Positions 4,970 through 34,974 of a stretch of DNA of 64,000 nt are shown here, piece by piece; positions within the stretch are counted from its first letter, which is position 1, and the number at the start of each line of letters is the position of its first letter. Location of the stretch: IMG/VR virus record IMGVR_UViG_3300009136_000001, positions 15,024-79,023 of that record; one strand, given 5' to 3'. The position numbers and the translations under genes were made by a program. The DNA comes from a virus. A model generated the notes under the pieces. It did not search any database. It was not told where the DNA came from and was given only the letters and a program-made list of their open reading frames with translations.

Positions 4970-5299
4970 ATGAGCGCACCCATACTGCAGTCAAGCCAAG
5001 CCAATTGGGTTCTTGGTAAAAATAATGGTCAGTGGACTTTAGCTGACGACAAAGGTAACCCTCTTTTCCTCTTCCCCGCATGTCTGAGTGACGCCAAGGA
5101 AGTTAATGCCATCAAACGTATGGCAATGTTGTACGAGCAAAGAGCTTATGATGAGGGCGTCGAAATGGGAAAGGCTGCTATGCTAACTGCCAATTCAATT
5201 CGAATGCAAGAAATGCACGATCAGATCCTTCTGCTTGAGCATATGAATGAAGACTTGGCATCAAAGCTGACCAAGTTCTTCGAGGACGTAGAAGAATAA
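4970..5299 (+). CDS. Hypothetical protein
   Basis: 109-aa ORF coupled to the next gene (TAATG). Confidence 0.6.
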   Translation: MSAPILQSSQANWVLGKNNGQWTLADDKGNPLFLFPACLSDAKEVNAIKRMAMLYEQRAYDEGVEMGKAAMLTANSIRMQEMHDQILLLEHMNEDLASKLTKFFEDVEE

Positions 5300-5682
5300 T
5301 GTTTACAGTTGCCATCACATTGTCAACCATGGAAAGTGAGAACCAGTGGGATTATATGCTGACTCACTTCCAGCCGGATCATATTGTCCTTTTAAATGAT
5401 TACCAACCATCCGGACAAATACTAAAAGGTGCTCTTCGTGAGTTCCCTGACGACAGCCCTAAAATCTTTTTCACACCCAAAGATGCATACCGGATTTCCG
5501 GAGAGATCTCATTGGTTGACTTCGTGCATCCGGAACATGCGACCTATATCTTTGGTTCAGACCACCAACACACTCTTGAAATGGTGTGTGACCAGAAAGT
5601 GTATATCCCCTTGGACGATAAATGTGAGATGTACTCCTGGACAGCAGCTGCAATAGTTTTCTGGGATAGACTACATGGCTGA
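5299..5682 (+). CDS. Minimal SPOUT (SpoU/TrmH/TrmL-like) RNA methyltransferase
   Basis: YIFGSD...CDQKVYIP...MYSWTAAAIVFWDR follows the SPOUT trefoil-knot pattern (FGxE...DxxVxIP...SLNxxxAxAIxLY). Confidence 0.65.
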   Translation: MFTVAITLSTMESENQWDYMLTHFQPDHIVLLNDYQPSGQILKGALREFPDDSPKIFFTPKDAYRISGEISLVDFVHPEHATYIFGSDHQHTLEMVCDQKVYIPLDDKCEMYSWTAAAIVFWDRLHG

Positions 5683-7339
5683 TTCAATTACTGACGGACG
5701 GACGCTGATTGATGATGCGGAAGCCGTAACACCTTATGTCGACCTTGGTGGTACAGGTGCTGGTTCTTTAGACGACGAAATCTTCTTCGAGAATGCCGGG
5801 TCTATCGGTTTAGACATTGGCTCGACATTGGATGGTATTTTGTATGATGCTGGGTCGGCTCAAGACTGGTCAGACAACACATTCTACTTCCTGATCAACT
5901 GCGGTATCGTAGGTCTACTTGCTGCGAAAGCCAGCGGTGGTTTCCGTATTCGTTTCTGTGGAGCCACAGTTTCTAATTGGTTTGAAGTATACGTTGGGGG
6001 GAATGATTCCTGGCCTGCATCTTTCGCCGGAGGTTGGTCACTGTTCGTAGTTGATATTGAAACAGCTGCAGCAGAAGCAGCGACTAATGGTTGGGAGAAC
6101 GGAACAGTTCCAGCAACCAGTGCTATCCAATATGTCGGATGGGCTGGTATCACAGGCGGAACCATGCCTCGAATGGTTGACAATACCTGGATGGATGCTA
6201 TGTACCGTCTACCTGATGGTACTGCGGCAATTATCATCCAAGGTGATAATACTGCTGCCGATTGGACTTGGGATGATGTACTTACCGAAATGGCTGCAGT
6301 CGATAGCCCCGTTGCTCGTCTTGGCTCAGGTGGTGCGATTACCTTATCCGGGCCAGTTAGCGTCGGTGCCAATGATTCGGTAACGCATAGCTTTATTGAT
6401 ACCAACAGAATCATCCTCTGGGATGATCAAGAATTCATTCCCGATGACCTTTACACGCTGTCAGCTATAGGCAATGCTGGGGGTACGACTACTATTGAGA
6501 TGGGAATCAAAACTGGTACAGGTCTTACAGCGAGTGGTGCTCAAGGTTGTACTATTGCTGCAGCGGCTTTAGGTGGTCGTTGGAACATGGACTTTGACGA
6601 TCCTAATATTGATACCGTTGGATTCTACGGATGTAGTCTTCAGCACATTGAAGATGCTCAGCTCGATGACGCCGCTGTAGATATCATATCCAGCTTGGTA
6701 ATCGATTCGACTATTCTGACATTACCCAATGCCAACTTTTTAAAGAACAAAATTATTACCCCGAACACTATTGCTACGGAAGCTGCAATTGCTGATGGGG
6801 GTGTCCTTGATGATATCCTGGTTGGTGAATTCGTATCTGGTGGTAATGGCTACGCTGTTGAAATTTCTGTATCAGCCACAGAAGCGCAAGCTTGGGATGC
6901 TATCCACTCTGGCTATGCTGGCACAGATGGTTCAACAGGTAATGAAACTATTCTGGTGAACATCACTTCACCTGATGTACTCACCATTAACGTATCCGAT
7001 TTCGGGGCTACTCCGACTATCCACAAAGTGGGTACTGGTACAGTCACTGTAGTCGCTGGACAGAAAACATTCAAATTTACCGTTAACCCGTCAATTACCG
7101 CATATGAATGGCGGATATACGAGGATAGTGGTGTGCCAGGGGAACTTGGTACCGTCGAACTGGACGGAGAAGAGTCTGCAATCGCAGATAATCAAACTTA
7201 TACCTATTCATACAGCTCAGATACAGCTATAGTAGTTCAGATAATCGCCGAAGGTTATGAAGAGTATACTCATTACGATACTTTACTGAACGGCAACAAA
7301 GATCTAACATTTAATTTAACAGTTGAGGATAACACCTAA
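5675..7339 (+). CDS. Virion structural / tail appendage protein
   Basis: 554 aa, acidic, G/T/D-rich beta composition, in the tail gene block. Confidence 0.6.
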   Translation: MADSITDGRTLIDDAEAVTPYVDLGGTGAGSLDDEIFFENAGSIGLDIGSTLDGILYDAGSAQDWSDNTFYFLINCGIVGLLAAKASGGFRIRFCGATVSNWFEVYVGGNDSWPASFAGGWSLFVVDIETAAAEAATNGWENGTVPATSAIQYVGWAGITGGTMPRMVDNTWMDAMYRLPDGTAAIIIQGDNTAADWTWDDVLTEMAAVDSPVARLGSGGAITLSGPVSVGANDSVTHSFIDTNRIILWDDQEFIPDDLYTLSAIGNAGGTTTIEMGIKTGTGLTASGAQGCTIAAAALGGRWNMDFDDPNIDTVGFYGCSLQHIEDAQLDDAAVDIISSLVIDSTILTLPNANFLKNKIITPNTIATEAAIADGGVLDDILVGEFVSGGNGYAVEISVSATEAQAWDAIHSGYAGTDGSTGNETILVNITSPDVLTINVSDFGATPTIHKVGTGTVTVVAGQKTFKFTVNPSITAYEWRIYEDSGVPGELGTVELDGEESAIADNQTYTYSYSSDTAIVVQIIAEGYEEYTHYDTLLNGNKDLTFNLTVEDNT

Positions 7340-24592: not shown

Positions 24593-27500
24593 ATGGCTTT
24601 TAGTACGAACTTTAAGGCAGTTAACTCTGCCTTTTTGCAGATAGGTAAGTCAATAGAGTTAGCTGAAGGCACGGAACGAAAGAAAGCTCAGCTCGACTTC
24701 AAAACTGAGAAACTGTCGCTCGATAAAATTATCGATGGCGATACTGTCCTCATCACCAATCCTGACGGGACTACCCGTAAGATGCGCCTTGCCAATGGCG
24801 GCACAGGTCGCTCCCTGGATACCTACGAAACATTTAAAGATCTGGAGACCATGGATCCGGAGATGCGGGTTCGCATGGAATCCAAACTCCTCAGGCAACG
24901 TGGTGCACTCGCCAGAGAGCGTGGCGTAGATCTGGATGATGTCACCAACGAGAATGTATTCGAGCAAGGTGAGAAAGGCAGAGCAGCCCTGTACCAATCT
25001 TTATTGGATGGGCAGAACCCAGAAGATCTGGGTGGGCCACATGATACATCCCCCCTATTTGAATACGCTGACCTTGGTACCGAAGGTAAGTACAAGCGTG
25101 CGCTCGGGCTGACCCGGAACAGATCCGGTGTCATATCCAACCTCGCTCTCAATACTCCTGAGCTGAATGCCGCATACGGCAGTGACTACAATGCTGTCGG
25201 ACGGCAAGCATACTCTCAGGCGATCGAAGAACAGGAACGAGCCGCTGCAAAGCGACGGGCTGAAACTGGACTGTCAGACGAATTCGCTGCCACTGGTGTC
25301 GGAGCGGTCGTTGATACTACAGGTAGACTCGCTGCCGGAGCGCAGCACGTTATCGGTATGGTTGCTGATCTACCGTTGGCTGGGATTGAGTGGATGGCTG
25401 ATGGTCTTGAGCCTAATCCAGAGCTTGAAGGCACAGATGGTTACAATGAGCTGGTACATAATATTACCCAGTTCAAAAAGCAAACCAAAGAGAATCGCTC
25501 AGCAGTCGCTAAGCTATTTGAGGGTGGTACCAAATTCTGGAAGTCGTTCACCAACGATAAGAAAGTTGAAGAGACCATGGCTTCGCTGGAGAAAGCCTGG
25601 GATCACGATCGATTTGCATCTGACTTTGCCGGTATCCTGGTTGAGAACCCCCATGCTACTTTGCAGTTCCTGGGTGAATCCATACCGTTCATGTACACAG
25701 CTGCCAAGAAGGGAGCTGCTCTGCCGTTTGGTGCAGCGTTCACTGGTGAGAATTATAAAGCTGGTGTAGAGCTGTATGAAGCCACATACGACAAAGCTCC
25801 CGAGACTGAAGAGAAGGCTTTGATCCTTGCTGGTGCCGGATTCATTGCCGCAATGAACAGTGCTGCATCCAAGTACGTAACCGGCGAAGAAGGCATGAAG
25901 ATCATGCTTCGTAAGCTTGGTTTCAAAGGTATGAATTCTTTCATGACTCAGACAGCTGCTAAGCTGGGTGCCAATATCCCTGCTGGTCGGTTGAAGAGCA
26001 TGAGCGAGATGCTACTGAAAACCTCAGTCACTGCACTGACGCCAGCTGCACAGCTTGCTACCCGAGGTGCTGTTGAATTTGTACAGGAAGGATCTGAAAG
26101 TCTGATCACTAAAGGTTCAGTGTTCCGTGATTTCAGTCAAACCTTCACTGATTCTAATCTGAAAGAGGCAGCCGTATCTGGTGCCATTGGTTTCGGTACT
26201 GGTGCGACAGCTGGCCCCACGTTCCAAGCAGCAGGGGTGGTGAAGCTCGCCGGGATAGTAGGCAAGCAGACAGTCGAGAAAGGTGTTAAAGCCGCTGAGA
26301 ACATCCCCTTCAATCGTGACGTAGCGAACTTCCGTGTTGACCAAGGTGATGAAGTTGTCAGTGGTGGTACCGCTGAATCCCTGCTCCGGGAAATCAATGA
26401 AGAGTTTGCTGTCTTTGAGAGCGAAGCAGAAGCCAACGAGTTAGCCAACAATCCTCAGGAATTCGAAAGACGTTCAGCTCAACTGATGGCGAAGACCATG
26501 GATCTTGCTACCCATCTCCAAAAGATGGATAAGAAGACTCGTGCCAAGAATCCTGAAATGCAGGAAGCTGTTAACAAAGTTGTATCAGCTATCAATCTGC
26601 AGAGTGCCGCCGATGCTAACGCGAAGGTGGAACAAATTGAGAACCTACTGGCTTCGGAGAACGTCGATGAACAACAGCAGGGTATTGACCGGGTACTGGG
26701 ATCGAGTGAAGAGGCTCTTTCGGTCTCCACCGAAACGATCGATAAAGCAATCGAAGTATCCCCGAATGAAAGTGTCACCCAACAACTCAACGAGATCAAG
26801 CGAAAGAAAACTCTCGAAGAAGTAGCGGAAGACGTACTCCGTGGTAAGCCTGGATCTGGTTTCATCGGTGTGAAGAATCGTCAGTACATCGCAGAGCGTT
26901 TGCTAAAATCAGGCGATATTGACGGAGCCAATGAGCAACTTGCAGAAATACGCAGATTCCGGGAAGTACATGGTGAGAAAGCCACCACTCTGATCAATGC
27001 TCAGAAGCAGTTCAAGGAAACTGGTCGAGGACAGACGGTAGAGATCGGTGGGCAGAACTTCTTTGTCGATGCCAGGTCGAAGAAATTAATCAACCAGGTC
27101 AGAGCTGAAGTCTTTGCCTTGAATGAAGTCGGTATGGCTTTGAAGAAAACCATCGCTGATGCACAGGTGAACACTCCTGAAGTAGAAGAGACCCAATCTG
27201 AGACCGAAGAGACCCAAATTGAGACCCCTGTCACAGCCCCTGCTGCTGTACAAGGGCTTGTAGTTCCTACTGCCAGCGATATTAGCACTCAGCTTAAAGA
27301 GGCTCGTAAGGGCAGCACAGACGCTCTCAAGCGCTTGCAAGAGCAGGCTGAAGTATTAGCCCAAGCTGGGAATAAGAAAGTTGCCAAGAAAATAACCGAT
27401 TCTATTAAAAAGATCGAGGAAGCAGCGACTGCGGAGCGCGAAGCAGCGGAGCAGGAAGCGGCTGACGAGGCGATCAACGACTCCATTCCAGATTCTGGAA

Positions 27501-30500
27501 TACAGAATGAACTTGAATTGAAGCGAGGTGATTATGAATTACTGGACGTACTCGAAACAAGTAAATCCAACAAGCGTACTCCGTTGGATGTACCGGCAAG
27601 CAACAAGCTTATACAAGCATTTAATTTTACCAGGGTTACATTATCTACATTTTTTAGCCGCAGTGCTAAAAGCAAAGCTAATGAAGCTCAGGAACCGATA
27701 GACGAGACTGATGCTGAGCACCTTGAACTCCTGAATGAGCAGTTCAAAAAGTACAGAAATATAGCCAAGCGTTTACCGAAGTTGGTCGGCAAAGAACTGA
27801 AAGCATTGCAGACGTTCACCAACAAGCAGGGTAAGCAGGTGAAAGCTGGTGGTCATGGTGATGACATCATGATGGACATGGCTGCACTACTGCTGGAAAC
27901 TGACAAAGATGGTAACCTGATGTTACCTGATGACGTTATCCTTGCCTCATTTATGGGCGCGATGAACTGGATGACTCACCAGAGCAAGGCTACCCTGTGG
28001 AATGACGACAAGCTGATAAACCAGCAGCTCTCACAAGCACCGAATTCTACTCTCACCAGTGAGCAGAAGCGTTTAATGAGGGAGCGCGGTAGCAAGCGTG
28101 ACTTCGTTGCCAAGACAATCGGTACTGACATATTTAATTCCTTGGCATTGAAAGCTGATACTTCTCAGCCGCTCGCCAGAGAGAAGATGATCATGTCCCT
28201 CGGGCTGTTCGCCACCAAAGTAATGTCCGCCATGGAAGAAGATGGTGACAAGTGGTTGACCGAAGATAGCGTATTATTGGAGAATCTTGCCAATGTATCC
28301 AAGTCCTCAGAAAAAGTACAGGAGAAAGCAAGCCAAGTCTTCTTCATGCGGATATCCCCGGACTCAAAGAACAATCTGCAGGAAGCCCCTGGTCTGACGA
28401 AAGTGATCGACCAGTTTTCTGCAGCTATGCCGACAGCCCGTAAGCTGTTCAATCTGGAGAACTACGAGCGTAAGCCTCGATCGAAGCCCAGCAAGAAAGT
28501 AAATGATGCTCCTCGGGGTAATTTATTCAAAGCTGGAGCTACTGCTCTGGCTCGGGTACTGCATCTGCAGCAGGTACCGTGGACTATGAATGCCACTGGT
28601 GACCTGACAGCCAAGTTGTCTGATGGGTTACTGAAGTCCATCTCTGGATATACGGAAGATGTTGCCACCACTGTGCACATTACACAGCAGGGTGCTGTAG
28701 CAGCGGTCAATCGCCAGATTGATGATGGTATTAAGTACGCCAAGGAAATGCGGGAAGCTTTAGAAGACCCGGCATCCGGATTTGAAAATGGCGAACTGTT
28801 CTTTGATTACGAGATCTGGAGTAACAGCCGGGTCGGTATGACCAGCAATACCTTCGATCCTCAGAACAGCAAGTATCACCGACACATTGTATCGCCGAAG
28901 AGCCACAAGACTACGGTGAACAGCAAGCGTAGGTTAGCAAACTTTAAGCGAGGCATAGCACTCGCATTTGATTACTCGGACAAAGGAGCCGCAGATGACT
29001 TTAAAACTGGTGCACAGCTCGAAGGAACCCTTAGTTCAGTCGAAGAAGAATTCGACCGGATCATCCACGACCCCAAGGTTCGCGCTGCGATCAGTGCAAT
29101 CCGCGAAGTGCAAGCCCAGGAAGGTGCCGCATCCGAAGCGCAAGAAAGGATTATCCTTTCAGCAGTCGGGGATTCCGACACCAAGTTCCACGGACTTGAA
29201 GCGCTTGTGGAATTATCATCAGCGCTCGGTACTCGGTTCGGCCTAAAGAAATCTTTCACTACTACCCTGTCAGTTGAGACTGATGGCGTAACGTCTGGGG
29301 TTACACTGGGTCTGATGCAGGCTCCGATCGTAAACAATATCCAGACCTGGCTGGCTCGGGGTGGAATATTCCTGAACGGGAATTTCACTAACCTCGGTGA
29401 CGCACGGGAAGCTATCCCAACCGACTCCTACCAGCAGCTGGTTCTCGATGCAGTCAAAATGCTGGAACAGGTGAACCCTGCCGGACTCGAACAGGTTGAA
29501 GCGATTCTGGGTAAGCTGACCGAAGATGGGGCAGTGACCAGCGTAGGTCGTAACCTGATGAAGAATCCTCTAATGGTTTACTCCTACGGAGCAGGTGAGT
29601 TCGCAATTAAGCGACATATGGCGGGAGCAATCCAGACAGCTCTGTATGAGAAGCTGGCGGAAACAAACGGTGACAAGGAAGCAATGGACGAGTTGTCGCA
29701 AACCGTTTCTGCACTTATGCGACAAAACGTTGTCTTTGAAGATCACCTTACTTCCGAGTTCAGCAAGTCTGAGCAGGAAGCATTCGACAAAGCAATCTAC
29801 GATTCGATCGGTGATGCGACTGTATCTTCCCTGGATCATAATTTTAAAGAGATGGCTGACCAGCGCAAAGTTCTGCTGCAGGCATTGAGTATCAGTTTCC
29901 ATACCTTCGAGATGAAGTACATCGAGGCAGTCCAGAAGTACAAGGACTCCAATGGTATCACGAGTCAGTTCCTGAGCAAGGAGCAGAAGAAAGAAGTCCT
30001 GAACCGGCCTGATGTTAAACCGTTCATTCCTTATTTCAATAGCCCGTACGGAACCAAGAACCGGGAATCTGCGGTCTCAATACTCGCCGAAGAGATTGTA
30101 CGGGGCATCATTAATGACGAGAATCGTGGAGCATCTTTCTTCACTCCGACGGTCAGTAATCGAATTCCATCGTACACAAGTGACACTTCTGGCTCACAAG
30201 TCGGTCAATCTGGTCAATCTTCCTCCGCTCTTGTTAAGAATAAGCGCTACCGGGTAGACGGTGTAGCAGCCCTGCCGAAGATGATTCACACTTTGGATAG
30301 TACACTCATTCTGGATACCCTGAACAAGTTTGATGGGCTGAACATTCATGATGCTGGCATGTACAGTGTCGACAGTGTGGACAATGCTACCAAGCTGTAC
30401 AATCAGAAGGTATTCGAGACAGGTCGGAACTACTCGTTGATCGGTGACATAACCCAGATGGTTACAAACCAGACCAGCAAGCTGACCGAGGAAGAAAAGG

Positions 30501-33500
30501 TCAAGGTACTGGAAGGCACCATAGCCGAGGAAGATGCCCGGATCAAGAATGAAGAGAGCAAGCAGGATATCAATACTGATACTACTGACTTTGACGATCG
30601 GATTAAATTCCTGAACAAGATCTCTCAGGATATCCAGGCTGCCAAGGAGAATCTGTTTGAAAGCATCTCGCATGTTCACCAGGCAGCGTACCCGTCACAG
30701 TCCAGCGTATACAGCACCGGGCAGGAAAAAGAATACAGCCCGATGTGGATCGACTTCGAATACCACCCCGGTGAGTATGATGCTGTCGAGATTCCGATGC
30801 AGACCCGAGAAGAATATTCCGAAGGCGTGCTACAAAGCAGCCAAGACTCCCTATCCAATTTCGAGGCAAGTTATGAGAATGAAGCTACTGCAGAGACTTC
30901 GCAACAAATTTTTGATGTCCTATCTAAGTTTGGTCATGTACGAGAGAACGGTCAACACCAGCGTCATCTACGCGGGATCCTGGATACAATTATAAACAAG
31001 GCTCTGAAGCCTGCTCAAGAATTCATTATCCAAGTTGGTGATGATGCCAAGGCGAGAAACGTCGGGCAGATTTCGGGTAAAACGATCCAGATACAGCTCG
31101 GTAAGTACCGTCCTGATCTATCCTTGAACCAATCCGCCGAGGAGATCTACATCCACGAACTGTTGCACGGCATAACAGCGAACGAACTGGATAGCAATTT
31201 TGCTCTGCGCCAGAAACTGGCTAAGCTATTCGAGACAGCGAAGAAGCACATCACTCCAGCCGATCTGATTACCCCAGCGGTAACCCAGACTCGTACTGTC
31301 ATGATGGATCACGTTGAAGCTCTGGCAGCTCAGGCACGCTACGACTACATCTTTAACAATCGGAATGCTACCGGAGGCTCAGACGGGCTGCATGAATTCC
31401 TGGCGTTTGGATTATCCAATGAGACCTTCGTCAAGAAGCTGGCAACTATCCCCTTTAAAGTTCCCAGGGAAAAAGCAACGAACGTGTTCGAAGCGCTGAT
31501 CAACCTGTTCCATAAGATATTCGAAGCAGTCGCATCTAAATACCACGGCAAAGTAAATGTCGGTAGCGATGTGTACTCACAGCTGTTGGATCTGACCAAG
31601 GATTTAACTGCCATCAATGAAGGCTGGCGTTTCCCAATGTCCGGCATGTTCGGAGCCATAAATGATCGGAAGCAATCTTTCGAGAATTCTGTGTATTCCA
31701 AAGGTGACGCACTTCGTAAGAAGCTGAACACCATGATCGATGCGGATAGAAGCGCAGTGCACCGCAAAATGTTCACCTTGGTTAACACCCTGAAAGCAGT
31801 ATCTCATGAGAAATTTGGTAAGACCCTTATCCAGTGGCTCCAAGACCACACTGAGGGCGACAGCTTCATGGGAGTCCTATGGAGAGAATTAGCAGGTGGC
31901 TCTGAACACTTCCGTAATTGGTTACCCCTGCTGCGGTACAGCAAGCAGCGGATCGATACTGCCCGCTTAGCAGCCAAGCAGAACATCATCCGAATTCTGG
32001 GCGAGACATTCGTCGAGGAAGCTACGGACGAAGAGAAAGAAATGCTGCATGATGCTTTGCTGAAAACTGACCTGGCAGCTCTCCTACCCCAGAACCCAAC
32101 CAACCGGGATATCCGGGAGATCATGAAACTCTTCAGTGACCCGGCTGAGATCGATGCCGCAATCAATGAGATCATGAAGAAGATCGGCAATGTGAAGCAG
32201 AAGACCTACTATCAAAAGCAGGCTAATAATCTGGGTTACTTCATGGCTACCGGCAACAACTCGCTGGAGCACGCCAACCTGAATGCATACAACATAGCTC
32301 GCCTGAGCTTAACCGATCGGGTGAATAACGATCTGGCTACCACGGATACCGTTGCTCTGATTGATCAACTGGCTTCCCTGTACGCAATTAAGTACACTTC
32401 TTCAGATGCGAAGGTATTATTTACCGAGTATGTTACCCGTACGTTAGCCACTGACTCCAAGACCAATGCTATTCGATTGATCCTGAACCTGCAGGCTGAC
32501 CATAAAGATTTCACCAGGGATAACCTGTTCAAGGATGAAGCTCACAGCGTCATCAAAGGTTTCACCAATGAGCTGATCGACCAGAACATAGCGGTCAAGG
32601 TCGGCAAAGTATCGGATGAAGCGATACTGGCGAAGCAGGGATTCAAGATAGCTTTCAAGATGGATAGCTTAGCTGATGGCGAGAAGATGGCTTTCTACAC
32701 AGCGATGAACGGAGCAGCCACAACCTACACCCGTACCATATTCAGTACAACTGCGGAAAATGTGAAGGGTACCACTCTCACAGCAGCGTTCATGAATGAT
32801 AACCCACTGGTAGGACGCTCCGAAGCGAAGCTGGCGCAGAATGCTCTGCGTAAGCAAGCAATGGAGAATATGAATAAGCAGTTCACCGGGAAGGTTCCTG
32901 ACCTGAGCCAAAGATCCACCAGGCAGAGAAATCCCCTGATCCCATTGGTTAACGCCAAAGGCGAGAGTTACGAGTACCGTCAGATCCTGAATCACCAGAT
33001 GAGGAAGGAGCACCTGAACGAGGACAGACGTATCGATGAAGTACTGGGTGCGATGTACGGAGCAATGAAGGACAAGCTGAATACTCGCAAGAATAATCAG
33101 ATCGTTATCGAGAACCTCTACAAGGATTATCAGGACAATTACGACAACGAGCCTGATCAGTTTGTCCGGGTAGGTGTGAATGGTGACTACGGTGACGTAT
33201 GGGCGGTAATCCCAGAGCAATCCAAAGAACACATCAGGAGCCTCACAGGAGTCCGTGAGATCTACATCCGGGCCGAAGTGGTAGATCTTGTCATGGGTTA
33301 CAGAAAGTTCTCCCTGAGCGATACCAAGATGGCTAAGCGGGTACTCCCCCCACAAGTTCGACACATCATGGATATCAGTGGAAAGGTTTGGCAGGAGATA
33401 GTTGCCCTTGGTGCTGTGCAGATCGTCGTGAAGACGCCTCAGGTGCTCGTAGACAACGTTCTCTCTAACACGATCATTCTTATCAGGGACGGATTAAATC

Positions 33501-34300
33501 CCACTGACATCGTTCGTAGGCACCTTGAGGGGATCGCTGCGCTGAACCAATACGAATTGGACATCTCTGAAGAGCAGAAACTGGTACTTGAACTCCAACA
33601 GGATGCTAATAATCACCGAAAAGTAGCAAAATTGGCAAAGGTTAGGGAATCAATCAAGAGAAATCCTGTCACTGAGCTTGTTACAGAGGGTATATTCCAG
33701 AGTATAACTGAGGATATTAACGTAAATAAGTACACGAGTGCGTCAACGATAGCCAATACCCGTGTAGGTAAGGCTGTCCAGAACAACATGCCAGGGTTTA
33801 TGACCCCTATATTTCAGCACGTATTCATGACTAAAGATACGTACCTGTTTAAACAGTTCCTAAAAGCAACTCAATACAGTGATTTCCTTGCTCGATACAC
33901 ACGGTATGCATTCCTGAAGGAGAAGGAAGGTCTTGATCAATTGGAAGGTGATGCTTACAGGCTGAAGAAAAATGAGATTCTTGCTGACCTGATTGAAGAT
34001 TACGTGAACTACGATGTGCCACAGCACAAGATGCTGCAGTACGCTAACGATATGGGGATGGTTCGTTTTACGAAGTATTTCTTGAGAACTCAACGAGTGA
34101 TCGTTAAGAAGTGGAAGCAGCAGCCAATCAATAACATGGCGTCAGTATGGTTACAGCAGGTGGTAGGTGATCAGCCAGATATCAATGACAGCTTCATGCC
34201 CTTTATGAGTCCAATGGATAAGGTATCTATCTTCGATGTTATATCTGATGCGACAGATCCGAAAGGCTTGGAACTGGCAGGTGGGTTGTTCGGACTATAG
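24593..34300 (+). CDS. Virion-encapsidated RNA polymerase (N4 gp50-like)
   Basis: 3235 aa; motif A ETDGVTSG, motif B RNLMKNPLMVYSYG, motif C IHDA; C-terminal HELLH; no Cys seen, as in N4 vRNAP. Confidence 0.95.
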   Translation: MAFSTNFKAVNSAFLQIGKSIELAEGTERKKAQLDFKTEKLSLDKIIDGDTVLITNPDGTTRKMRLANGGTGRSLDTYETFKDLETMDPEMRVRMESKLLRQRGALARERGVDLDDVTNENVFEQGEKGRAALYQSLLDGQNPEDLGGPHDTSPLFEYADLGTEGKYKRALGLTRNRSGVISNLALNTPELNAAYGSDYNAVGRQAYSQAIEEQERAAAKRRAETGLSDEFAATGVGAVVDTTGRLAAGAQHVIGMVADLPLAGIEWMADGLEPNPELEGTDGYNELVHNITQFKKQTKENRSAVAKLFEGGTKFWKSFTNDKKVEETMASLEKAWDHDRFASDFAGILVENPHATLQFLGESIPFMYTAAKKGAALPFGAAFTGENYKAGVELYEATYDKAPETEEKALILAGAGFIAAMNSAASKYVTGEEGMKIMLRKLGFKGMNSFMTQTAAKLGANIPAGRLKSMSEMLLKTSVTALTPAAQLATRGAVEFVQEGSESLITKGSVFRDFSQTFTDSNLKEAAVSGAIGFGTGATAGPTFQAAGVVKLAGIVGKQTVEKGVKAAENIPFNRDVANFRVDQGDEVVSGGTAESLLREINEEFAVFESEAEANELANNPQEFERRSAQLMAKTMDLATHLQKMDKKTRAKNPEMQEAVNKVVSAINLQSAADANAKVEQIENLLASENVDEQQQGIDRVLGSSEEALSVSTETIDKAIEVSPNESVTQQLNEIKRKKTLEEVAEDVLRGKPGSGFIGVKNRQYIAERLLKSGDIDGANEQLAEIRRFREVHGEKATTLINAQKQFKETGRGQTVEIGGQNFFVDARSKKLINQVRAEVFALNEVGMALKKTIADAQVNTPEVEETQSETEETQIETPVTAPAAVQGLVVPTASDISTQLKEARKGSTDALKRLQEQAEVLAQAGNKKVAKKITDSIKKIEEAATAEREAAEQEAADEAINDSIPDSGIQNELELKRGDYELLDVLETSKSNKRTPLDVPASNKLIQAFNFTRVTLSTFFSRSAKSKANEAQEPIDETDAEHLELLNEQFKKYRNIAKRLPKLVGKELKALQTFTNKQGKQVKAGGHGDDIMMDMAALLLETDKDGNLMLPDDVILASFMGAMNWMTHQSKATLWNDDKLINQQLSQAPNSTLTSEQKRLMRERGSKRDFVAKTIGTDIFNSLALKADTSQPLAREKMIMSLGLFATKVMSAMEEDGDKWLTEDSVLLENLANVSKSSEKVQEKASQVFFMRISPDSKNNLQEAPGLTKVIDQFSAAMPTARKLFNLENYERKPRSKPSKKVNDAPRGNLFKAGATALARVLHLQQVPWTMNATGDLTAKLSDGLLKSISGYTEDVATTVHITQQGAVAAVNRQIDDGIKYAKEMREALEDPASGFENGELFFDYEIWSNSRVGMTSNTFDPQNSKYHRHIVSPKSHKTTVNSKRRLANFKRGIALAFDYSDKGAADDFKTGAQLEGTLSSVEEEFDRIIHDPKVRAAISAIREVQAQEGAASEAQERIILSAVGDSDTKFHGLEALVELSSALGTRFGLKKSFTTTLSVETDGVTSGVTLGLMQAPIVNNIQTWLARGGIFLNGNFTNLGDAREAIPTDSYQQLVLDAVKMLEQVNPAGLEQVEAILGKLTEDGAVTSVGRNLMKNPLMVYSYGAGEFAIKRHMAGAIQTALYEKLAETNGDKEAMDELSQTVSALMRQNVVFEDHLTSEFSKSEQEAFDKAIYDSIGDATVSSLDHNFKEMADQRKVLLQALSISFHTFEMKYIEAVQKYKDSNGITSQFLSKEQKKEVLNRPDVKPFIPYFNSPYGTKNRESAVSILAEEIVRGIINDENRGASFFTPTVSNRIPSYTSDTSGSQVGQSGQSSSALVKNKRYRVDGVAALPKMIHTLDSTLILDTLNKFDGLNIHDAGMYSVDSVDNATKLYNQKVFETGRNYSLIGDITQMVTNQTSKLTEEEKVKVLEGTIAEEDARIKNEESKQDINTDTTDFDDRIKFLNKISQDIQAAKENLFESISHVHQAAYPSQSSVYSTGQEKEYSPMWIDFEYHPGEYDAVEIPMQTREEYSEGVLQSSQDSLSNFEASYENEATAETSQQIFDVLSKFGHVRENGQHQRHLRGILDTIINKALKPAQEFIIQVGDDAKARNVGQISGKTIQIQLGKYRPDLSLNQSAEEIYIHELLHGITANELDSNFALRQKLAKLFETAKKHITPADLITPAVTQTRTVMMDHVEALAAQARYDYIFNNRNATGGSDGLHEFLAFGLSNETFVKKLATIPFKVPREKATNVFEALINLFHKIFEAVASKYHGKVNVGSDVYSQLLDLTKDLTAINEGWRFPMSGMFGAINDRKQSFENSVYSKGDALRKKLNTMIDADRSAVHRKMFTLVNTLKAVSHEKFGKTLIQWLQDHTEGDSFMGVLWRELAGGSEHFRNWLPLLRYSKQRIDTARLAAKQNIIRILGETFVEEATDEEKEMLHDALLKTDLAALLPQNPTNRDIREIMKLFSDPAEIDAAINEIMKKIGNVKQKTYYQKQANNLGYFMATGNNSLEHANLNAYNIARLSLTDRVNNDLATTDTVALIDQLASLYAIKYTSSDAKVLFTEYVTRTLATDSKTNAIRLILNLQADHKDFTRDNLFKDEAHSVIKGFTNELIDQNIAVKVGKVSDEAILAKQGFKIAFKMDSLADGEKMAFYTAMNGAATTYTRTIFSTTAENVKGTTLTAAFMNDNPLVGRSEAKLAQNALRKQAMENMNKQFTGKVPDLSQRSTRQRNPLIPLVNAKGESYEYRQILNHQMRKEHLNEDRRIDEVLGAMYGAMKDKLNTRKNNQIVIENLYKDYQDNYDNEPDQFVRVGVNGDYGDVWAVIPEQSKEHIRSLTGVREIYIRAEVVDLVMGYRKFSLSDTKMAKRVLPPQVRHIMDISGKVWQEIVALGAVQIVVKTPQVLVDNVLSNTIILIRDGLNPTDIVRRHLEGIAALNQYELDISEEQKLVLELQQDANNHRKVAKLAKVRESIKRNPVTELVTEGIFQSITEDINVNKYTSASTIANTRVGKAVQNNMPGFMTPIFQHVFMTKDTYLFKQFLKATQYSDFLARYTRYAFLKEKEGLDQLEGDAYRLKKNEILADLIEDYVNYDVPQHKMLQYANDMGMVRFTKYFLRTQRVIVKKWKQQPINNMASVWLQQVVGDQPDINDSFMPFMSPMDKVSIFDVISDATDPKGLELAGGLFGL

Positions 34301-34516
34301 TCCCCGGTTCTCTATCCCTGTCCATGGGTGAGCATCAGGTTTATTCGGCAACTCTCGTGGTTCCCAAGATAGGATTGTTCCAGCTCCAGTGCCTGAATAA
34401 AAATCAAACAGAACGATACCCGGTTCATCTTCGCTATGGCATCCTATGACTGTTACGATTTCATCCATGTAGAGAATTTCTGCAGTAATGGGTTGTCCAG
34501 GTGTAGGGAGTTCCAT
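34295..34516 (-). CDS. Hypothetical protein
   Basis: 73 aa with a GAGGA RBS, convergent with the vRNAP. Confidence 0.5.
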   Translation of the reverse strand: MELPTPGQPITAEILYMDEIVTVIGCHSEDEPGIVLFDFYSGTGAGTILSWEPRELPNKPDAHPWTGIENRGL

Positions 34517-34535
34517 GCGTGTATCCTCTAAGGGT

Positions 34536-34604
34536 TGGGGTGAGGCGGGGAATCGAACCCCTCCCCACGAGTCACAGTCGTAGGTCTTCCCTGAAGTACC
34601 TCAC
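34536..34604 (-). tRNA. Atypical tRNA-His(GTG)
   Basis: GTGAGGT/GCCTCAC acceptor + C-CCA, anticodon loop CT-GTG-AC, T-loop TTCGATT; D-loop only 3 nt. Confidence 0.65.
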
Positions 34605-34613
34605 AGCCGAAAT

Positions 34614-34684
34614 TGGTAGCGGGAATGGGAACTGCCCCCACCTGCCACAGGTTATGAGCCTGGGCTTCTCTATTGAACCCCGCA
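34614..34684 (-). tRNA. Atypical tRNA-Met(CAT), initiator-like 1:72 mismatch
   Basis: TGCGGGG/TCCCGCT + A-CCA, loop CT-CAT-AA, non-canonical T-loop GGCAGTT and reduced D-arm. Confidence 0.6.
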
Positions 34685-34690
34685 CTAAAT

Positions 34691-34765
34691 TGGCTCCAGA
34701 GGCTGGGATCGAACCAACGACAAGCGACTTAACAGGCCGCTGCTCTACCGCTGAGCTACACTGGA
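34691..34765 (-). tRNA. tRNA-Asn(GTT)
   Basis: Canonical cloverleaf: TAGCTCAGCGGTAGAGC, GCGGC-CTGTTAA-GTCGC, GGTTCGATCC, CCA. Confidence 0.95.
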
Positions 34766-34767
34766 AT

Positions 34768-34844
34768 TGGTTGTCAGAGCTGGACTCGAACCAGCGACCC
34801 AGCGCTTATCGAGCGCTTGCTCTACCAAACTGAGCTATCCGACA
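34768..34844 (-). tRNA. tRNA-Ile(GAT)
   Basis: Canonical cloverleaf: AGCGC-TCGATAA-GCGCT, GGTTCGAGTCC, CCA; C at position 33. Confidence 0.92.
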
Positions 34845-34849
34845 AAAGC

Positions 34850-34897
34850 GTCAACGAGATCTGCGGTGCGGGCTTCACCCGTTGACTATGCACCGCA
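34850..34897. ncRNA. Candidate pseudoknotted RNA abutting the tRNA cluster
   Basis: Crossed stems GTCAAC/GTTGAC and TGCGGTGC/GCACCGCA with a nested GGG-CTTCA-CCC hairpin. Confidence 0.45.
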
Positions 34898-34974
34898 CGT
34901 AGGTATGAAGTACTGTAACCAGTATCCCATGTTAAAGCAAAAGAATCCATACAGATTGATAATTATTATTATTC

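Follow-up and report, generated by a model that had tools for sequence, protein, structure and literature searches.

Two compact tRNA genes, a tRNA-His and an initiator-type tRNA-Met, in the tRNA cluster of an N4-like phage

A stretch of 64,000 nucleotides (nt) of virus DNA, here called the window, spans bases 15024-79023 of the IMG/VR record IMGVR_UViG_3300009136_000001, which is 79,023 bp long and rated complete. On its minus strand lie two adjacent genes of transfer RNA (tRNA) type that depart from the canonical tRNA core, a 69-nt element with a GUG (histidine) anticodon at 34536-34604 and a 71-nt element with a CAU (methionine) anticodon at 34614-34684, and the question they raise is whether they are the remains of tRNA genes, mimics put to some other use, or tRNAs that serve translation in an unusual form. 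A reading of the letters alone (the sequence-only reading) had described two CCA-ending tRNA-like genes here, His-GTG of 69 nt and Met-CAT of 71 nt, and these coordinates and lengths hold. It had also called both genes degenerate, a description that we do not retain, as the His element folds without a mismatch and both elements match compact designs that recur with compensatory changes in other phages. We conclude from these comparisons that both have probably been maintained as phage tRNA genes with a compact core rather than left to decay, and that they are most likely working tRNAs.

Anatomy of the His and Met elements

Both elements retain a 7-bp acceptor stem, a discriminator, an encoded CCA and a 7-nt anticodon loop with U33 and a purine at position 37, all of which can be read directly from the sequence and from the ARAGORN drawings; the sequence-only reading, which had listed the stem, the discriminator, the CCA and the 7-nt loop, was accurate on these points. 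It was likewise correct in its finer details, namely the 3-nt D loop of His and the T at its position -1, and the missing D-loop GG, the GGCAGTT T loop and the 1:72 mismatch (U·U) of Met.

The His element consists of the acceptor stem, A8, a 4-bp D stem with an AGG loop, one nucleotide, and a 7-bp anticodon stem with the loop CUGUGAC, followed by a 2-nt variable loop, a 4-bp T stem with the loop UUCGAUU, C73 and CCA. This cloverleaf is its minimum-energy fold, has 22 pairs and zero mismatches, and makes up 53% of the ensemble. It deviates from the canonical core in the 1-nt linker, the 3-nt D loop, the 7-bp anticodon stem and the 2-nt variable loop, and thereby shows all four traits that define a compact core according to PMC7609411 (a linker of at most 1 nt, a D loop of no more than 5 nt, an anticodon stem of at least 6 bp and a variable loop of no more than 3 nt). 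The conserved D loop had been thought lost in both genes. This is right for Met, which has no GG, but not for His, where the short AGG loop keeps the GG and the T loop is canonical. Neither gene is simply a shortened one, since the anticodon stem has been lengthened in each, to 7 bp in His, where the two added pairs come at the expense of the variable loop, and to 6 bp with a C·U mismatch in Met.

Comparison with E. coli hisR (L052:1010-1086) places the GUG element among bacterial tRNA-His genes in its anticodon, its G1-U2-G3 start, its 3' end (CAC-C73-CCA) and its T loop (UUCGAnU). It differs from hisR in the compact D arm, the 7-bp anticodon stem, the 2-nt variable loop, the 4-bp T stem and, at position -1 (34605, minus strand), in a U where bacterial genes encode a G-1 opposite C73. 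ARAGORN in its standard mode calls the element tRNA-His(gtg), and on the Rfam tRNA model it scores 21.1 bits (E = 0.11 in an 801-nt search), short of the 29-bit threshold.

The Met element begins with U1, which forms a U1·U72 mismatch, and continues with G2-G7 as in E. coli tRNAfMet; it ends in A73 and CCA, and its anticodon loop is CUCAUAA. Between these lie a linker of 0-1 nt, a weak D hairpin of 2-3 bp, the 6-bp anticodon stem, a 4-nt variable loop and a fully paired 5-bp T stem with the loop GGCAGUU. The compact core is thus partly represented, in the linker and the anticodon-stem length, with a variable loop of 4 nt and an ill-defined D hairpin. Alignment shows G2-G7, C67-C71 and GGCUCAUAACC to be common to this element and the E. 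coli initiator gene metY (L051:714-790), but not to the elongator gene metU. The unpaired 1:72, G2:C71, C3:G70, A73 and the CAU anticodon are all as in an initiator; the three G:C pairs that close an initiator anticodon stem are not complete, the order being G:C, G:C, then A:U. Its likeness to metY therefore comprises G2-G7/C67-C71, the unpaired 1:72, A73-CCA, the CUCAUAA loop and the two G:C pairs that adjoin this loop, and it differs in having U·U and not C·A at 1:72, A:U and not G:C as the third stem pair, G·U at 7:66, a D arm that is about 6 nt shorter and lacks GG, and GGCAGUU as the T loop.

The Met element has no Rfam match at E<=10 and is found by ARAGORN in the mitochondrial mode only, exactly at 34684-34614. 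That mode gives 11 other matches in the 64 kb, so that such a call is by itself weak evidence for this gene. The element also sits in phase within an 86-nt gap of a cluster whose genes end in CCA. A run of ARAGORN had been proposed as a check on both genes, and each was recovered at the positions given. A transfer-messenger RNA (tmRNA) or another structured RNA running across both elements was considered as well and has no support from ARAGORN or Rfam.

Compact classes in other phages and in close relatives

Other phages carry tRNA-His genes of the same build. IMG/VR was searched with a pattern that represents the 3' half of the His element at a spacing too short for a canonical tRNA, and 15 loci matched; six of these (L084, L086, L088, L089, L094 and L097) have a tRNA-His of the window's architecture, on unrelated contigs of 24-182 kb. 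We define this compact His class by the layout 7/1/4(3-5)4/1/7(7)7/2/4(7)4 and a length of 69-71 nt. In none of the six contigs does ARAGORN or the pattern reveal a second tRNA-His within the examined part of the tRNA array. Set to canonical spacing, the pattern matches at least 120 stretches, and the compact form is therefore a minority.

The stems of this class covary. Among the seven compact His sequences, that of the window included, 96.4% of cells are paired and 11 of the 20 pairs have changed on both sides, a level that none of 500 shuffles attained; controls in which the stems were slid are 41-55% paired. The 6th and 7th pairs of the anticodon stem are among those that covary (A-U, C-G, G-C), and we therefore regard the long anticodon stem as a selected feature. 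When a covariance model was built from the six other sequences, with the window's element excluded, that element scored 84.1 bits (E = 1.6e-17) over its full length and was the sole match in the 64-kb window. On the general Rfam model the other compact His genes score 32.3 bits, 29.0 bits (as tRNA-Sec) or are unlisted, compared with mostly 40-74 bits for their array neighbours.

Position -1 varies within the class, with G in four of the seven sequences (L084, L089, L094 and L097) and T in the other three (the window, L086 and L088). Three of the former (L089, L094 and L097) start with G-U-U-G, which sets G-1 opposite C73 and is followed by a U1·C72 mismatch, and the window, L086 and L088 start with U-G-U-G, with no G-1 and a G1:C72 pair. 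One class thus has two alternative solutions for the 5' end.

A further His gene was seen in the cultured Pseudomonas phage phiPsa374 (NC_023601.2, approximately 28625-28698; L100:872-945), in which an unannotated tRNA-His(GUG)-like gene of 74 nt with a non-canonical D arm lies in a tRNA cluster and is found only by the mitochondrial mode of ARAGORN. More than 100 Pseudomonas phage records matched the query; 16 listed records have the same stretch at 80% identity, phiPsa374 being the one inspected. Two of the compact-His contigs, L088 and L094, also carry GOLLD-like RNAs (133 and 119 bits, under the 150-bit threshold), and the L088 tRNA array includes a permuted tmRNA (117 bits); these RNAs lie at L088:8777-9253 and 6227-6519 and at L094:11719-12177.

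Compact initiator-like tRNA-Met genes form a second class. They were sought with a pattern in which an initiator-type acceptor stem and anticodon loop accompany a D region shortened by at least 4 nt relative to the canonical one; 29 loci matched, with 23 distinct sequences, or 24 with that of the window. Members typically have a single A8, a D stem of 3-4 bp with a 3-5 nt loop that often contains GG, and an anticodon stem of 5-8 bp, and in all 24 the T stem has 4-5 of its 5 pairs. Pairs were counted by a script from fixed anchors, MAFFT having put terminal gaps in the acceptor stem, and the covariance model was made for the His class only. Pairing exceeds that of all 2000 shuffles at T1-T3 and at AC3-AC5 of the anticodon stem, and that of all but three at AC6, and covariation among homologues, which the sequence-only reading had named as a check, is thus seen in both classes. 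Position 1:72 is unpaired in 20 of the 24 sequences, with U·U the commonest state (10 of 24), as in the window; the third anticodon-stem pair is G:C in just 10 of the 24, and CCA is encoded in about half of the genes.

The Met element of the window belongs to this class, with all T pairs, AC1-4 and AC6 paired and U1·U72, and stands at its edge, as no other member has so weak a D hairpin and the T loop is non-canonical. The T arm, GUGGG-GGCAGUU-CCCAU, has a counterpart in the 210-kb contig L060, CUGGG-GGCGGUU-CCCAG, in which the first T-stem pair is compensated; the L060 copy likewise has no GG in its D loop. A pattern for this T-loop subclass had L060 as its sole match, and an exact 21-mer from the T arm gave 0 matches in IMG/VR.

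The surroundings of the compact Met genes are of two kinds. In tRNA arrays the compact gene adjoins a canonical Met(cat) gene (L060, L080). At about 13 of the 29 loci (L054, L058, L059, L064, L069, L076, L081 and others) it is the only tRNA that ARAGORN finds in the examined stretch, which hints at a special value of initiator supply for phages. The order Met then His recurs in L061, although this is probably incidental because the His gene there is canonical.

Close relatives of this phage were not found through its flanking proteins or by blastn in IMG/VR, the JGI metagenomes or the GenBank phages. The search with a 146-aa open reading frame (ORF) returned 39 loci, all non-syntenic, and the C-terminus of the virion RNA polymerase returned four, at 28-33% identity and with the cluster absent. 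The 73-aa ORF next to the His gene returned one IMG/VR and four JGI loci with no adjoining tRNA, the IMG/VR locus having a lone tRNA-Asn about 1 kb upstream. Against GenBank phages, blastn matched only the canonical Ile and Asn genes of the cluster, and the two elements alone matched only a T-arm-like fragment in Synechococcus phage S-RIP1 and a canonical tRNA-Met in phage Myrna.

Close relatives are present among Logan contigs, in four runs from two studies of coral-reef and marine-sediment metagenomes; the differences described are taken from those listed, and only covered stretches are interpreted. No RNA run was among the sequencing runs listed as matching. In a sediment contig the segment 34285-34537, which holds the 73-aa ORF, is replaced by 19 nt, so that the end of the polymerase gene is joined to the His gene. 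Over the His element and nearly all of Met (to 34678), which this contig retains, there are 5 differences in 141 nt, compared with 23 in 313 nt for the polymerase part. A near-identical contig of low depth (2.5; X5 record 25) skips 34765-34843, with tRNA-Ile exactly absent and the rest kept. One reef contig and the sediment contig, which cover the site, share a G44>A change in Met, by which the first pair of the T stem, G·U in the window, becomes A-U.

A more diverged His allele (34510-34636), represented by two contigs from two reef runs, has about 15 substitutions and three indels in 127 nt; two of the indels are single-base insertions, mirrored in the two strands of the anticodon stem, that jointly add a U:A pair. 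Taken together, these metagenomic relatives are suggestive of evolution that keeps the structure. A contig of 354 nt has the same three indels and, if it is the same allele, a far less diverged 73-aa ORF region (19 differences over 353 nt), and the diverged allele could reflect either replacement of the allele or fast evolution of the His gene.

Probable working tRNAs and the alternatives

The anatomy of the two elements, their membership of two conserved compact classes, the covariation within these classes and the retention of both genes in close relatives are directly established. We regard both as probably maintained genes because decay leaves unexplained the mismatch-free stems, the extra covarying pairs, the recurrence in unrelated phages and the retention amid loss of neighbouring features. 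That they decode is likely because the compact His gene is the sole tRNA-His found in the examined stretches of six arrays, the anticodon loops keep their canonical form, and identity elements are preserved, namely GUG and C73 in His and CAU, A73 and the initiator acceptor stem in Met. Expression, processing, charging and use in translation are inferred, as is the selective reason for the build.

In such a scheme the cluster would be transcribed as one unit, and host tRNA-processing enzymes would cut out each tRNA with its CCA already encoded. Host HisRS would charge the His tRNA, chiefly through GUG and C73, and host MetRS the CAU tRNA through CAU and A73. The latter would act as an initiator, by virtue of its unpaired 1:72 and the initiator-type G2:C71 and C3:G70. 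In both molecules the usual tRNA core is replaced by a linker of 0-1 nt, a tiny D hairpin and an anticodon stem of 6-7 bp, with a variable loop of 2 nt in His and 4 nt in Met.

Several observations weigh against this conclusion. The main doubt about His concerns its U at -1, since G-1 is the principal HisRS identity element in bacteria and a search of the phage turned up no Thg1-like gene; the His tRNA might therefore be poorly charged. The 3' C-run of the gene is one C shorter in two close relatives, and the encoded C73-CCA register is thus not strictly kept. For Met the main doubts are the weak D arm and the odd T loop. No member of its class is weaker, as it has a 2-3 bp D hairpin, a C·U mismatch in the anticodon stem and only two G:C pairs, not three, beside the anticodon loop, and its T loop, without T54-psi55, is found in only one other contig (L060). 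The His covariation is based on seven sequences. Moreover, both family patterns were derived from the window, and the acceptor stem, the anticodon loop and, in the His class, the T loop and the CCA are alike partly or wholly by construction (the CCA was fixed by the His search pattern), such that the independent evidence in both classes comprises the D arm, the outer anticodon stem and the T stem only.

The alternative that survives best is that the elements are non-decoding tRNA mimics, folded RNAs that would have a regulatory role or would serve as decoys or sponges to engage tRNA-targeting toxins or tRNA-modifying enzymes of the host; the sequence-only reading had proposed such decoys. The U at -1, which should weaken recognition by HisRS, and the absence of canonical elbow sequences from Met would both suit a molecule that is not meant to decode, and phage tRNAs are known to counter tRNA-cutting defences (PMC10264068). 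The compact Met gene also stands beside a canonical Met(cat) gene in the L060 and L080 arrays, as a decoy might; an initiator beside an elongator Met is the normal pairing, however, and is therefore no pointer to redundancy. A decoy would be expected next to a working copy, but the compact His gene is the sole tRNA-His found in the examined stretches of all six contigs. The anticodon loops, although partly fixed by the search patterns, stay canonical with 7 nt, U33 and A37, the acceptor stems are intact, and CCA is encoded in about half of the compact Met genes. We therefore think it unlikely that the elements are mimics, and less likely than that they decode.

That the two are pseudogenes, a tRNA-His and a tRNA-fMet crippled by deletions and now drifting, is very unlikely. 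Decay might be suspected from the Rfam scores, which are under the threshold for His and absent for Met, from the missing G-1 and the mismatched Met anticodon stem, and from the variable length of the His 3' C-run and the ~15 substitutions and three indels of the diverged allele. It does not account for an unusual build that recurs in unrelated phages with compensatory changes and without mismatches in the His stems. Nor is a D-arm shortening that is coupled to two extra, covarying anticodon-stem pairs a product of decay, and relatives without the neighbouring ORF or without tRNA-Ile retain both genes at about 96% identity. The preference of the sequence-only reading for selection over random decay is thus upheld, on the strength of the recurrent designs, the compensatory stem changes and the persistence of both genes in close relatives.

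Finally, the tRNA shapes could serve as RNase P and RNase Z sites that separate and stabilize the end of the operon, including the message of the 73-aa ORF, in the manner of mitochondrial tRNA punctuation, and the His gene does end 20 nt ahead of that ORF, but we consider this highly improbable, as one relative without the ORF keeps both tRNAs, the compact His and Met genes lie elsewhere in ordinary tRNA arrays or alone, and a cutting signal needs no conserved anticodon or anticodon loop.

Genomic setting, known counterparts and implications

The phage is an N4-like podophage. A 3235-aa ORF on the plus strand (24593-34300) matches the helical domain of the N4 virion RNA polymerase in Pfam, and downstream on the minus strand Pfam identifies an N4-type primase, a split family-A DNA polymerase, an AAA_24 ATPase and a DUF5664 hydrolase. 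The late genes (plus strand) and the early and middle genes (minus strand) converge near 34300. Pfam searches of the nearby genes show an ordinary N4-like replication module with no tRNA-related enzyme, and a 127-aa ORF at 5299-5682 (plus strand) has no Pfam match at E<=0.01. For His, Met, Asn and Ile, the phage's codon usage is unremarkable.

The cluster comprises four tRNA-type genes in the order Ile-Asn-Met-His, arranged head to tail on the minus strand with spacings of 2-9 nt and with CCA encoded in all four. The first, tRNA-Ile(GAU) at 34768-34844, and the second, tRNA-Asn(GUU) at 34691-34765, are canonical and are found by ARAGORN and by Rfam (RF00005; 61.7 and 60.3 bits, respectively). 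Whole-feature differences among the metagenomic relatives give the impression of a cluster assembled from movable single-gene units. Upstream of the cluster is a leader (34845-34900, minus strand), which may lie outside the feature, with one hairpin of -17.6 kcal/mol that folds no better than chance (z = -0.41 relative to shuffles). The leader has no Rfam match, ribozymes included, and a simple scan of it showed no promoter-like or terminator-like sites. The 73-aa ORF (34295-34516, minus strand) starts 20 nt past the His gene and is the last gene of the minus-strand unit. It has nine homologues at 63-71% identity, with DFYSG and PRELPNKPDAHPW as invariant motifs, and is not required for the tRNAs; the ORF itself has no Pfam or PHROG match, and one homologue has a precomputed PF04448 label.

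A compact core with a single linker nucleotide, a small D loop, a long anticodon stem and a short variable loop is the hallmark of tRNAPyl and of mammalian mitochondrial (mt) tRNASer(UCN), both of which retain the L shape (PMC7609411). The suggestion that the two elements are mitochondrial-style minimal tRNAs holds to the extent that their core is like that of type I mt-tRNASer(UCN) and of tRNAPyl, and fails in that they are not armless. With tRNAPyl of the Methanosarcina barkeri, Desulfitobacterium hafniense and Methanomethylophilus alvus types (PMC7609411) they share a linker of at most 1 nt, a D loop of 3-5 nt and an anticodon stem of at least 6 bp, together with a 2-3 nt variable loop in the case of His; the Met element is like M. 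barkeri tRNAPyl in the joint absence of the D-loop GG and the T-loop T-psi-C. The resemblance is one of architecture only. tRNAPyl has a CUA anticodon, G73 and G1:C72 and is charged by PylRS, in contrast to the GUG and CAU anticodons and the C and A discriminators of these phage-borne genes, whose acceptor stems and discriminators match bacterial tRNA-His and tRNA-fMet; in His, moreover, the anticodon stem has 7 bp and the T stem only 4 bp.

The His element is similar to type I mt-tRNASer(UCN) (PMC7609411) in its single linker nucleotide, its small D loop with GG, its T-psi-C, its extended anticodon stem and its short variable loop, with a D loop that is smaller (3 nt) and an anticodon stem that is longer (7 bp). 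The mitochondrial tRNA works in an organelle with adapted translation factors, whereas the His tRNA would have to work with the ordinary bacterial system.

Departures from host tRNAs are also known among phage tRNAs of canonical shape, where variants in the anticodon loop escape host tRNA nucleases (PMC10264068). These are likewise phage-encoded, with departures from host tRNAs that are thought to be selected, and are a possible functional analogue of the compaction. They differ in that point changes in the anticodon loop or stem of a canonical tRNA are involved there, whereas the compact tRNAs combine canonical anticodon loops with a core that is rebuilt throughout. Our best guess is that compaction alters surfaces read by host tRNA-cutting defences or tRNA-modifying enzymes and leaves a molecule that synthetases and ribosome can still use. 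The T5 tRNA-Lys reportedly counters PARIS, and a phage tRNA-Tyr is said to counter retron effectors.

Full-text searches of the literature returned nothing on phage tRNA-His or initiator tRNAs with a compact core. What is new here is an N4-like phage with two compact tRNAs side by side, a formally tested class of compact tRNA-His and, among initiators, a rare subclass whose T loop is GGCRGUU. The number of tRNAs in phages is under-counted at present, as the Rfam tRNA model and default gene finders miss compact genes or under-score them.

The textbook view is that bacterial translation needs the canonical tRNA core, and compact cores are known from pyrrolysine tRNA and from mitochondria, where the partner proteins are adapted. 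If the His and Met genes are working tRNAs, a core much smaller than has been assumed is probably acceptable to the synthetases, RNase P, initiation factors and ribosomes of ordinary bacteria, and the compact designs could be natural scaffolds for orthogonal tRNAs.

Tentatively, and as a proposal that we consider rather unlikely, the compact core may be a phage-specific 'stealth' design, in which the D arm, the elbow and the anticodon-stem length are rebuilt such that host synthetases and ribosomes accept the His and initiator tRNAs and tRNA-directed defences fail to recognize them. If this were true, the agents evaded would include anticodon nucleases, OLD/PARIS-type nucleases that cut the anticodon arm, Schlafen-like enzymes and initiator-cleaving VapC toxins, and the phage's own host shut-off might also spare the compact tRNAs. 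The lone compact initiator in the examined stretches of many contigs would then be a dedicated route by which initiation is sustained under attack. More generally, the two compact classes point to selection that acts on how phage tRNAs are shaped and that may be tied to tRNA-targeting immunity.

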